In this document: one piece after another, positions 34,395-59,827 of the stretch
How positions within the stretch are numbered: the stretch's first letter is position 1
Layout: each line of letters starts with the position of its first letter
Origin: Eledone cirrhosa
Taxonomy: Eukaryota
DNA length: 64,000 bases
Direction: 5' to 3'
Assembly: GCA_964016885.1 (NCBI GenBank)
Contig: OZ024755.1
Coordinates: forward strand, 9,672,001-9,736,000
Made by a program: the position numbers and the translations under genes
The notes under the pieces: generated by a model
The model's database searches: none
Told to the model about the DNA's origin: nothing
Seen by the model: the letters and a program-made list of their open reading frames with translations, nothing else

Positions 34395-34522
34395 TTTAGG
34401 TTTGTCCCGATGAGTGTTCACAGCCTTGATATTTAACGGACAGAATTCAACCCTACAACCATATGCCACTGGAGTTAGCTTGATGACAGTGTGAAGTGGT
34501 ACCTTCAGATAAGCTAGATTCG
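34395..34522 (-). CDS. PFKFB: PFKFB exon (end of bisphosphatase domain, canonical version)
   Basis: [43 protein letters not shown]; phase-1 acceptor, GTAAGT donor. Confidence 0.95.
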
Positions 34523-35095
34523 CTGCAAAAGAAAACCAAAGTCATTTATAACAACAAGTTACATTGAAAATAATAAACAAATGATATAATGAATGAAGAA
34601 AAATGAAAAGTTAAATGTGAGATTATTTAATTTGTTACATATACATCACAAGCTGTTGAATGAGTTAAAGTATATGAGCTGATAATATACACAGTTGTAC
34701 ATTTCAATGTTCCTGGACAAAGTAATCACAAAAGACTTTAATGCAATAAACACTGTTGATGTTAAAAGTAGTATCAAGGAGGAGGTAGTGGTCTAATTTT
34801 ACTTCAATTGAACATAAATTAACCCTTCTAGTATTGTAGAACCAGGGGGCTGAAACTGCTCTTGGTTCTACGATAATAAGCTGTTATTTTTATGTTTATA
34901 TTTATCTAAACACCTTGCAACATAATTTTATGGAAGAACATTTGTTAAGTTCCACCAGGTTAATAAAGAAAAAGTTAGTTATATTACTAAATGACTCCAA
35001 ATTTTTTATTATTTTCAAAAGTATTTCAAAAGCATAGGCAGTGTCCTTTAGAAATATGGTAATGAAAGGGTTATAGATATCAATGTTTATGTATA

Positions 35096-35194
35096 CGGGG
35101 TGTCCCCAAAAATGTATACACACTTTGATTACCTGTATAGGCAATATTTATTAGAATGCTGTTGAAGTGGGTATACATTTTTGGGGACACCCTG
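35096..35194. mobile_element. 99-bp Tc1/mariner-type MITE with TA TSD
   Basis: ta-cggggtgtccccaaaaatgtatac ... gtatacatttttggggacaccctg-ta. Confidence 0.85.
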
Positions 35195-36229
35195 TATATT
35201 TGGTGTTTAAATCCTTGTTAATAATTGATAACCTCCTGAACCACAGACCAAATATATAAGATAAATTTTTACAATCAATTCATTTCTAATCAATAAGTAA
35301 AAGTTCAATAATTCATTATTTCTTTATTGAATACAAAACCAAATGAGATTGATTTTTTTTTTTTTTCATCACCAGAAACCACCTCTGGTTCTGGGATACA
35401 AAACTGTTTGTTTTAAAGTGTTCATATTTATCTACCTTTCTTTATAATTTTATGAAAGAACCAGCCTAACAATTTTTGGGGAAGTGGAAAGTTGATTAAA
35501 TCGACCCCAGTATGTTACTTTATTTTATTGATCCTGTAAGGATGAAAGGCAAAGCTATCATTGGCAGGATTTGAACTCAGAACGTAAAGGGCTGCGACAA
35601 AGTAGAATGTTCGACACCATACTAATAGTCCAATCCTTAACCAGGCTAACAATGAACTGGTTAGTTATATTACTAAATCCCTTCAAATTCTTGATAATTT
35701 TCAAAATCATTTGAAATATGATACACAGTATCTTTTATTAGATATATGGTAACAAAAGGATTAATTATTTAATCATTTTAGTTGAGACCACCTTTGATTT
35801 TATCCCACTGATTAAAGATAGTATAGGAATGTTGAACACTGAAACAAAATCTCACACATTATTAAACTAAATATATTTAGAGCAGTTAGTGTCCTGGTAA
35901 AAAAAATAAAAATTGTCAAAAAAATTAATTTAATGTGACATAATGTTTAAGATAGGTCAATTTGATAATTTATTGGATTTAATTTCAATACCATTTATCC
36001 ATTAAAAAGATGGAGAAAAGCATGTAAATATTAAAATTGTAAATATCATAAGTGTCAACTTTAAGGCATAAACTTCATTGAAAGAAAGTGAAGTGAGTTA
36101 AATTTGACACAAAATTTGAGATTTTCAATTGACAGAGCTGGGCTAACGAGTTCCAGACATAATCACTGCACACATCTACAAAACATTATCACACCTTAAA
36201 CAGAAGAAGCATTTAACTACAACCCTTGT

Positions 36230-36710
36230 AATAACTTCAAAGGCTAGGCTTTCTTCACCATCACTGATTATCTCTCCTGGAAGGACTGCACCTTAAAGAT
36301 TGGACCTTTCTCTTCAGGACCAAACAACCATTAACATTCTATAAAGCTCAGGTGAAATCCACAATGAAGTATTGTTTCCATATCTGTATGGTACTACACA
36401 CACACATATTTTATACTGCATCCAGAGAAAGGTCATCGGATTGTTTGGCATGATGTCACTAACAAACACATTCTAACCTCTGGGCCACAGGCTTGCTGTT
36501 TCATCTCTCTGCCTTTTTTAGCATTACTAAAATGGCTACTGCTCCTCAGAATTAGCTGATCTTGAGCCAACTGTACTCAGGCACTCCGGAACCATCTGTT
36601 ACTGCCCCACTTATTAACCTTCCAGACCCTACATTAACCCCTATATCTAGTCGAATCTTCTCAAAATGTCAGTCCTCAAGAATTGCCTCCCTGTACATCA
36701 TTTCTGAAGG
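36230..36710 (+). mobile_element. Decayed CR1/Jockey-group LINE 3' region; reverse-strand relative near 46020-46150
   Basis: YKAQVKSTMKYCFHI and IQRK remnants of the LYKAQVRP.MEYCSH.W...IQRKA motif. Confidence 0.6.
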
Positions 36711-57100: not shown

Positions 57101-58789
57101 TGTAGTTGACGAAACTATAGTAACCCAATATGCATTATAACTAAATAGAATTTTATGTACCATTATAACAATGAAATGAATGGAATATACAAATAGACTT
57201 GCATTTAATATTTGGCGCAGCTTGCATTGGCGTTTAAATGAGTGACTTGAAGAGAGAGTGTAGGGCAAATGTTTGTTTAAAGCAAGCTTGTTTTGAAACC
57301 AGGCAGCTTTGATGCCTGCCACTTACCAGCTATTTAGGTAACTGCCTGATAGAAAACATACTATTAAAAGGGAAAAACATTTACAATAAAACAATATCTC
57401 AAAGAAAGCATGGAATGAATCTGAAGAATTTATAACAAATAATTCTACACACACAAAGGAAACCATTCTGCTCATCACTATTTGAATATAATACTCTACC
57501 TTGCTTTAGTTCATAAGTCAAAGGTCAAATTGAACATCACTCTGCCATACATAATATAAAACAGGTCATTGAAGGGTTTCAGCAGTTTCAGTGTTGTGAT
57601 AAAAGAGCAGCTACAGCTAATATAATAAGGCTATTTTCACTTATTAAATCAGGGTATAGCTTTGTGGTCCCCATGAAAGGATTCATATTCATCTTGGGGT
57701 CCTTTTTGAATCAATGTTTTATGACCAGGTACCCTTTCTAGCACCAAACCTCTCAAACCCCACTGACAACATGCAGGAATGCAATGTACCTGTCCCAAAC
57801 TAGACATACACAACTGTAGTGATAAGAGAAAATTGACAGGGCCCCAGTTTAATCATATTGATGTTATAGCTTACACCTACGGCACTTTAGCTGAGAGTGA
57901 CTCAAGTCTTTCTAGATCGTCCTCTATTGCGTCTTCCTTCCACTGGGGTTTCCTGGTTCACCTACCAGTCATTGTCCATGCACATCACATGTTCATACCA
58001 ATGCACAGACTATATATATATATATATATATATATATATATATATATATATATATATATATAAAGGTATAATGCCAGAAGTAATAAAACTCTATTACTTG
58101 GATAAAAAATATGTAATAAAACATTATATATTGAATCTAGTGCTTTCATCCTTCACAAGACTTATCAAGATATAAGATTAATTGTTTCTTTAAACAACTT
58201 TATATTTTGAAACAATGTTTTATATTTTTTATCCAAATGATAAACTGTGTTTTAATACTACTGAAAATTATAATTTATTAATATATTATTCTGCACACTA
58301 CCGAAGATTATACACACACACACATATATATACATATCTACTGTTTTAGATTTATGCTTCGACAGTAGCATGTTATATGTAAGATATTATATGTATGTAT
58401 GAAGCTGTAACTCCATACGAGTGTTGTAGTGTTATACAGCATGTCTTCAGTTCATACTGAATATTATTTTGTCATAAACAAAACAGAAAAAATGAATTTC
58501 AACTTTTGATCCCTATGCTACACATAAACCTCAAAATTAATGCTTAACTTTTAATATCCTGTATTACACGAAACAACACTGTGACTTCATCACATTAAAA
58601 ATGAAAGTCTTTACTCTAATATTGCAAATTTTCAAAATAATCTGTTCACTAGTAGAAGATACTATAAACATTTGAATTAACAAATCTGTTTCCTGTTAAA
58701 CCATTACAGGATATTAAGAGTTATTTGAGTTATAGTGTTACATGCTTGAGGAAGTTTTTAGAATTATTTATAAAATGAAAATGAAGTGA

Positions 58790-59300
58790 AATTTACAGCT
58801 CCCATGTATGCAGGCTTATTTTGGTTCCCTACAAGGTTGTGTCTCACAGCAGGTTTCTTGGTTGTTTTAATAATAGGTGTCCTCACTCTTATGTTGTTGT
58901 TACAGCTCACATATATGTAGGCTTAGCAAGCCCTCTACAAGCTTGTATCTCATAAGAGGTTTCTTGGGTGTTTTAATGATAGTGGCCTTCAGTTCTCTCA
59001 TGTTGCTGTTCCAGCTCATCTTTATAGACTAAGCAAGTCCTCTACAAGGTTCCATCTCACAGGAGGTTTCTTAAATGTTTTAATGATAGTCGCCTTCTAT
59101 TATGTTGTTGTTCCAGTTCATCTTTGTTGGCTTAGCTAGCCCTCTACAAGGTTATATCTCATAAGAGGTTTCTCAGATGTTTTAATGATAGAGACCCTCA
59201 GTCATATCATGTAACAGCTCACACCTATGCAGGCTTAGCAAACCCCTACAAGGTTGTATCTCATAAGTTTCTTGGGTGTTTTAATGATAGAGGCTCTCAC
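58790..59300 (+). repeat. ~95-105 bp satellite-like array, ~5 units
   Basis: cagctcac...gcttagcaagccctctacaaggttgtatctcataagaggtttcttgggtgttttaatgatag. Confidence 0.8.
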
Positions 59301-59739
59301 TCATATCAAGAAGAACAATGTGAAATGAAACTTCTAGCTCAGGAACAGAATATGCCATATTGGTCCAGGGATTGAACCTTATGATCCCGAGTCCAACACC
59401 CTAACCACTAAGCCAATTATAAGATGAAAAAAATACAATGAAAGAAAATGACCCCCATTTCAATAAGAGAAGCTTTAACTTCAGTGAACCAACATAGAAT
59501 CCACATTCCATGTAATTATTTACATTTAGTTAATTGTTTATGGTGGTGAAAGAAATATAGTATTAATGAAAAATTAGAAAACTAGCAAAATACTTTCTGA
59601 AATTATGACAATGTCTTCAGAATGTACACACACACACAGTTACACACACGTTACATACACACAACCACAAAGGAGGAAAAAAATAATTCTTGTGATGTGA
59701 AATTAATACTTTATATATATAAAACCATTCTATACTCAC

Positions 59740-59827
59740 CAGAATTTTTGTCTTGGAAGTATGCAAGTAGACACCTGGCTACTGCTTGGTGACAAATTAC
59801 CATCACATTTTCTTGTCGCTCAAGTTC
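59740..59827 (-). CDS. PFKFB: PFKFB exon with second catalytic His of the bisphosphatase
   Basis: [29 protein letters not shown] + G (phase 1), GTGAGT donor. Confidence 0.96.

Follow-up and report, generated by a model that had tools for sequence, protein, structure and literature searches.

PFKFB sets the concentration of fructose-2,6-bisphosphate and thereby glycolytic flux, and vertebrates vary it with four genes. How an animal with one PFKFB gene might supply more than one isozyme is the question raised by a stretch of 64,000 nucleotides (nt) of the octopod Eledone cirrhosa (assembly GCA_964016885.1, contig OZ024755.1, positions 9,672,001 to 9,736,000 of the forward strand; hereafter the window, whose numbering is used throughout). 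An earlier interpretation made from the letters alone (the sequence-only reading) had proposed that a 25-kb PFKFB intron holds a cassette of mutually exclusive C-terminal modules. We found that this cassette is absent and that its strongest candidate is real: an old duplicate of the canonical exon, exclusive of its parent by reading frame. Spliced ahead of the original, the copy shifts the original's frame, likely giving a second form of the enzyme in which the domain ends differently and the normal tail is missing.

One paralogous exon in the PFKFB intron

In the window, PFKFB lies on the minus strand and is represented by its 3' half, with the kinase exons in loci farther upstream. Exons for both an N-terminal kinase and a C-terminal histidine phosphatase domain, the combination that defines PFKFB (PFK-2/FBPase-2), were found across the window and the upstream loci; 158 of the 168 amino acids of five window exons were identical to Octopus bimaculoides PFKFB, and the canonical exon had one match in the 3.0-Gb genome (only the best candidates were scored). 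The intron after the exon encoding the HQAV helix measured 25,217 nt, next to 173 to 6,127 nt for nine other spans measured, and its donor (59740) is in phase 1. Approximately 44 kb and 73 kb past the window end (window-equivalent positions 108264 and 137102) lay alternative first coding exons, both with matches among O. bimaculoides N-termini, and there is a possible small exon near 83085.

Several in-frame acceptors had been proposed to face this donor. Every AG coordinate named was present with the translation given for it, but only the acceptor at 49821 rose above chance, by profile and by a contig junction described below. Because any AG after a phase-1 donor yields some peptide, and the intron held 1,310 AGs, being in frame carries no weight. 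A profile from 119 proteins (81 distinct segments; 20 proteins and their clusters excluded) was compared with the 797 acceptor peptides of at least 10 residues and picked only 49821 (E 6.2e-5); the runner-up was an upstream AG on the same open frame (E 2.8e-4), and the next unrelated peptide scored E 0.27. A six-frame profile scan of 11,716 pieces likewise picked only the 49821 frame. The strong sequence support that had been claimed for this exon held, with a Smith-Waterman score of 53 against the canonical exon that none of 5,000 shuffles matched.

The duplicate exon (Table 1) encodes the last short helix and two strands of the phosphatase domain. Its likeness to the parent exon was not significant in DNA (206 of 2,000 shuffles were as good), with identities of 13, 21 and 11 of 30 at the three codon positions; DNA likeness lost with protein likeness kept is as expected of an old duplication. 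The peptide alone, short and diverged enough to require a profile, gave no PFKFB match with phmmer in PDB or Pfam, and a word-based protein search with the exon, a weak search confined to cluster representatives, gave no candidate.

The cassette as first conceived, with five or six mutually exclusive terminal modules selected by RNA pairing, is very improbable. The donor is indeed promiscuous in annotation, where 4 of 15 octopod and 3 of 123 other listed mollusc proteins had short or unrelated tails, and one further acceptor, at 51368, is common to O. bimaculoides. Against this, the intron held one paralogue only, co-inclusion of the two exons was seen, and the other tails would be without two core strands. 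Docking and selector pairing did not exceed shuffles in three donor-proximal pairs, where 4, 10 and 11 of 20 shuffles did as well; of seven flank pairs (about 300 nt examined per flank) six fell within their shuffles, and one pair flanking the duplicate stood above them (0 of 20, uncorrected). What survives of the proposal that exon duplication gives a single gene isozyme diversity is a one-copy PFKFB with a second module after the HQAV helix.

Splicing and reading frame of the duplicate exon

Eleven sequencing runs overlapped the stretch, and contigs of four (X11, X4, X6 and X3) were aligned to 49400-50400. X11 had a sequence without differences in the duplicate exon, the remaining contigs coming from related organisms. 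Contigs of X11, X4 and X6 departed from the genome at 49822 and continued with the end of the donor exon (29-30 nt), giving the junction 59740-49821, and those of X11 and X6 departed at 49725, an internal donor overlooked by the sequence-only reading, and continued with the first 29-30 nt of the canonical exon (junction 49725-34522). These joins imply an origin from RNA. One 708-nt contig of X6 included the duplicate exon and more than 250 nt on either side, 30 of them printed; the X4 contig stopped at 49725 with no loose end listed, and the X3 contig was unspliced. Contigs also ran across 49725 in all four runs. The exon occurs in two forms, a 97-nt cassette and a read-through with a stop at 49708, and the alternative last-exon use suggested earlier is possible through the second. 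The ATTAAA and AATAAA nearest to this stop are at 48629 and 48038, and the read-through contigs could be unspliced precursor. From the canonical ending of 11 of 15 octopod proteins and from forks in X11 contigs, we infer that the direct skip junction 59740-34522 is also used.

Since 97 equals 1 modulo 3, inclusion of the duplicate puts the canonical exon into the +1 frame, and the predicted product has 32 module residues, then 23 residues of the +1 frame and a stop at 34455-34453, 58 nt before the next junction. Because of this frameshift the two modules never stand in one protein, though both exons are in one mRNA: exclusivity is set by the reading frame, at the protein level, and not by splicing. 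By contigs and gene models together, the canonical exon is dual-coding, its frame differing between transcripts. Mutually exclusive duplicated exons are tandem paralogues of the same length modulo 3 that are never spliced together. The 49821 and canonical exons are tandem paralogues, but of 97 and 128 nt, and the mutually exclusive splicing proposed for them is contradicted by X11 and X6 contigs, and by gene models of snail and mussel, in which the duplicate is joined to the canonical exon (49725 to 34522 in the contigs).

Selection on the duplicate was visible among the relatives. X3, X4 and X6 shared five changes in the exon, each of them a synonymous third-position change when read in the paralogous frame; in either other frame none was (P 0.003, matched for base type), and indels between the relatives were confined to the flanks of the exon. 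As in exon substitution, the isoforms differ by a homologous region of which both versions are under purifying selection. We consider it improbable that this is instead a poison exon, whose inclusion destroys the mRNA by nonsense-mediated decay and whose protein likeness is a relic of duplication. The frameshift, weak splice sites and flanks well conserved in X3 would fit such an exon. The decay rule, which comes from vertebrates, places the stop more than 50-55 nt before the last junction, and the 58 nt found here is a borderline case; a candidate 19-nt microexon in the same intron would yield the same shift and stop. The peptide of a poison exon should be unconstrained, however, and here synonymous-only change (five of five) and identity to the snail module at 19 of 32 residues show selection on the protein, whose likeness to the parent remains although that of the DNA is gone. 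The read-through form, moreover, has no downstream junction.

The same module in snails and mussels

The ten non-cephalopod mollusc clusters comprised 186 members, of which 123 were listed and examined. Five carried the module after the orthologous donor (Littorina saxatilis KAK7102213.1 and Mytilus trossulus XP_063433274, 288, 296 and 314, the last four from RefSeq), all as isoforms in automatic gene models; 113 were canonical, 3 ended shortly after the donor and 2 were fragments. The tails of the Littorina and Mytilus proteins were the +1 frame of the canonical exon of the same genus at 24 of 24 positions including the stop, where the best of 5,000 shuffles reached 7-8. Conservation of the candidate peptides in molluscs had been named as one check on the cassette; the 49821 module was recovered in Littorina and Mytilus, and the exon is much older than had been supposed. 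A search of 1.84 billion representatives gave three matches, two being short proteins with the same module; the third (P0255, repetitive) was dropped as a chance match. The octopod and Littorina modules shared 19 of 32 residues, compared with 11 shared by the octopod module and the octopod canonical exon, and the first nine residues were identical in octopod, Littorina and the two short proteins. In a midpoint-rooted tree of 31 columns, with long branches, the five modules were separated from 22 canonical segments (98/96).

The split of bivalves, gastropods and cephalopods dates to the Cambrian, and by these comparisons the duplication likely predates it. Alternatively, octopods, snails and mussels may each have duplicated the exon and converged on the same frameshift, which would suit the absence of the module from 118 of the 123 listed mollusc proteins and a Mytilus module about equally near to canonical segments, given that long branches can attract. 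We regard this as unlikely: position and phase shift are identical, the inferred lengths are 94-97 nt, the modules form one clade (98/96), they share an EIP start and an I(P/E)LL end untypical of canonical segments, and nine opening residues are unchanged in four of the sequences.

The shifted tails have features of their own. The stop fell at codon 23 of the shifted frame in octopod, snail and mussel, as it does in 5-15% of synonymous recodings of each (post hoc, independence assumed). The snail and mussel tails open with RRxS, the motif of a kinase site (8-25% of recodings each, post hoc). The octopod tail is without RRxS because the start of the octopod canonical exon has changed to Asn-Leu-Ala, where most animals have Glu/Asp-Leu-Pro; the duplicate retains the consensus Glu-Glu-x-Pro-Tyr. 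Tail residues otherwise varied between lineages and were modelled as disordered.

Protein structure and predicted activity

Modelled within the canonical octopod protein, the canonical exon contributed a short helix, two strands (428-435, 438-445) and a tail that was ordered (predicted local distance difference test, pLDDT, above 80 to residue 480). The phosphatase domain of PFKFB4 ends at residue 438 according to PMC8396304. This corresponds to residue 31 of the canonical exon; the rat liver domain 1fbt ends at residue 32, and homology of the module to the canonical exon ends at residue 30-31. The Littorina isoform model had both strands at pLDDT 84-92 and a disordered tail at 34-44, and aligned with the tail-less 1fbt over 189 of 190 residues at 0.9 Å. 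On this model the snail isoform is predicted to keep the full phosphatase fold and to lose the ordered THR tail. For the snail tail region the ESM Atlas returned only generic histidine-phosphatase fragments (0.89-0.92). The module retains Y, P, K, G and C.

Substrate binding and product release depend on the THR tail, whose removal raises turnover; the tail-less rat liver FBPase-2 domain is reported in older papers to have a higher turnover. We place a faster phosphatase of lower affinity somewhat ahead of the opposite outcome, in which the same splicing and protein leave the fold intact and the phosphatase crippled, giving a kinase-dominant, PFKFB3-like isoform that drives glycolysis. This second outcome, which we hold less likely though well short of improbable, draws on the replacement of the invariant Leu, His, Leu, Pro, Ala and Tyr and of the THR motif, on a Leu position that differs among modules (C, F, F, Q, Q), and on phosphatase-impaired splice variants proposed for human PFKFB4 in PMC8396304. 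Against it, a crippled domain would need little sequence constraint, whereas conservation of the module extends over three classes, and the crystals of the tail-less rat domain held a phosphoenzyme (as its molecule names state).

Proposed mechanism

We propose that the duplicate exon completes the phosphatase fold itself, before the frame shifts. Its acceptor is weak (rank 1,230 of 1,310, yet used in contigs; ranks are rough, the training set of the acceptor matrix being 13 sites from the PFKFB gene itself), as is its donor (rank 442 of 1,454), and together they would point to regulated inclusion. A very stable hairpin about 205 nt upstream may take part: at z -15, with 0 of 200 shuffles as strong, it was the strongest of 279 intron windows, no further genomic copy was found, and it is a possible splicing element or substrate of adenosine-to-inosine editing. 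Downstream, a latent donor at 49691 (rank 57 of 1,454) would give an exon of 131 nt, the parent's 128 plus one inserted codon (3), and may be the ancestral donor; its use was not seen among the loose ends listed (8 others were unlisted). The product would be a stable protein. Least certain is that its domain is folded and active and that, without the THR tail over the active site, it would release product faster and bind substrate more weakly; inclusion is then predicted to retune fructose-2,6-bisphosphate levels.

Several observations weigh against this proposal. None of the 11 runs was recorded as RNA, and the junctions rest on loose ends with 29-30 printed letters, in contigs that carry no expression level. 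The five synonymous changes were the same in all three relatives and amount to one comparison, and the 58-nt stop distance is just beyond the decay rule. The tree had just 31 columns and long branches, and the Mytilus module was as near to canonical segments (57-71) as to other modules (69-84). The module was present in 0 of the 15 examined among 21 octopod proteins and in 0 of 4 in a second (squid/cuttlefish-like) cluster, although absence from annotation is weak evidence. The structural model is of the snail's protein, and 62 of 64 rows of its alignment were canonical, favouring a canonical-like fold. Finally, 6 residues that do not vary among 81 homologues are changed in the module, as is the whole AV(N/D)THR motif, and the phosphatase of the duplicate isoform may be crippled.

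Other acceptors and neighbouring features

Among the remaining candidates, the acceptors at 55909 and 43677 had no profile score (ranks 153 and 715 of 1,310) and are likely chance. The dispersed repeat bordering 57813 had 40 matches among 40 scored candidates, one of them itself. The 19-nt microexon at 57345-57327 is a plausible candidate on its splice sites, being the sole such strong site pair within 60 nt on the sense strand (antisense 0); its 7-residue peptide is below the minimum length of the profile test. It would also put the canonical exon into the +1 frame with the identical stop, without supplying the strands. By tblastn, the sequence after the acceptor at 51368 (rank 6 of 1,310) was 49% identical (E 4.6e-10) to the final exon of O. 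bimaculoides isoform X4, with an earlier stop in Eledone, and its poor conservation argues against a selected peptide. No orthologous acceptor was found in the intron for the tails of the O. vulgaris-type P0006 and O. sinensis P0014. In several molluscs, models P0006, P0009, P0014, P0178, P0193 and P0225 stop 1-19 residues past the donor, with the last two strands absent; these short-ended models are either real kinase-only forms or annotation artefacts. Tail choice after the canonical exon, as with last exons A and B (Table 1), is common in other mollusc models too, and Branchiostoma PFKFB models (P0072-P0136) comprise approximately 49 isoforms varying after the THR motif.

Elsewhere in the window, 15637-16044 (plus strand) is an exon of a protein kinase gene (Pfam Pkinase E 1e-10), CDK-like by eye and convergent with PFKFB. 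An open frame at 967-1413 (minus strand) had no Pfam match and holds what we take to be a JmjC-demethylase-like motif.

Table 1. Positions of PFKFB exons and intron features in the window
Feature	Position	Strand	Evidence and remarks
Constitutive PFKFB exon with HQAV helix	59740..59827	-	29/29 residues identical to O. bimaculoides XP_052823197; phase-1 donor 59740
Terminal candidate of 4 residues (VVYV*), likely chance	57799..57813	-	Edge of dispersed repeat; acceptor rank 97/1,310; too short (4 residues) for profile test
Candidate microexon, 19 nt	57327..57345	-	Acceptor rank 15/1,310, donor rank 2/1,454; no repeat match over it
Non-paralogous alternative terminal acceptor	51220..51368	-	Orthologue of last exon of O. 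bimaculoides isoform X4 (XP_052823200.1); absent from the sequence-only reading
Long hairpin, about 205 nt upstream of the duplicate's weak acceptor	50028..50198	-	83-nt arms, 81% complementary
AG-free zone, about 80 nt	49822..49902	-	Branch-point-like TTAAC at 49872; pyrimidine tract displaced
Duplicated, diverged exon, 97 nt, 32 codons	49725..49821	-	Paralogy, both junctions in contigs, synonymous-only change, mollusc orthologues; single copy
Read-through extension, 6 further codons to TGA at 49708-49706	49691..49724	-	Contigs across 49725 in 4/4 runs
Canonical exon, 128 nt	34395..34522	-	38/41 residues identical to O. bimaculoides; two reading frames, normal on skipping and +1 after the duplicate
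Alternative last exon A, after canonical exon	30159..30230	-	57% identity (E 4e-4) to the tails of O. bimaculoides isoform X9 and others
Alternative last exon B, after canonical exon	26481..26549	-	Matches tail of O. bimaculoides isoform X2, E 2.5e-9, 76% identity

Comparison with known systems and significance

INK4A/ARF and XBP1 are dual-coding systems in which one exon is read in two frames through an upstream splice. In PFKFB, by comparison, the frame-setting exon is a paralogue of the exon it displaces, and the fold is completed before the shift. The rat liver FBPase-2 structures 1fbt and 1tip resemble the predicted product in ending at canonical-exon residue 32, where homology of the module ends; they differ in being engineered constructs with canonical sequence.

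Tandem duplicated exon substitution, as in PKM exons 9/10 and KHK, uses homologous exons as alternative versions of a region of a metabolic enzyme (survey PMC9741552). PFKFB here likewise varies one region with homologous exons, but in PKM and KHK one exon replaces the other in the mRNA, whereas here both stay and the 3n+1 length puts the parent out of frame; PFKFB was not mentioned in the text of that survey or in the one supplement searched. In a mollusc metabolic gene, exon 10 of oyster alternative oxidase also has a diverged upstream copy, a conserved downstream copy and an alternative 3' choice, and the diverged-copy form rises under air exposure; this is a duplicated last exon used as a terminal choice in one oyster, and the abstract reports no frameshift of an internal parent (PMC5589949). 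Splicing of vertebrate PFKFB1-4 varies the C-terminus and phosphorylation sites (PMC4178209, PMC6131595, PMC13446353, PMC8396304), and some PFKFB4 variants lack pieces of the phosphatase region (PMC8396304). In the available portions of these papers the variants change the tail or delete core, and no homologous substitution of the last strands was found. No account of a PFKFB exon duplication in any animal turned up in open-access PubMed Central or bioRxiv, which cover few subscription papers. The duplicate isoform already stands in automatic annotations of two other molluscs and is undescribed in the literature searched.

One PFKFB gene was found here, from which a second isozyme is predicted, and a conserved splice switch in its phosphatase core would show how a single gene can supply isozymes in molluscs, many of which are hypoxia-tolerant. 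We put forward tentatively, as a possibility somewhat short of an even chance, that for more than 500 million years molluscs have made two PFKFB isozymes per gene through a 3n+1 frame-switch, with the parent exon serving as an unstructured, phosphorylatable tail and flux set by tissue or oxygen state. The locus points to an overlooked route to exon exclusivity, through frame instead of splicing. If this is true, exon duplicates exclusive by frame alone would form a class that is passed over, as apparent decay targets, when mutually exclusive exons are searched for.

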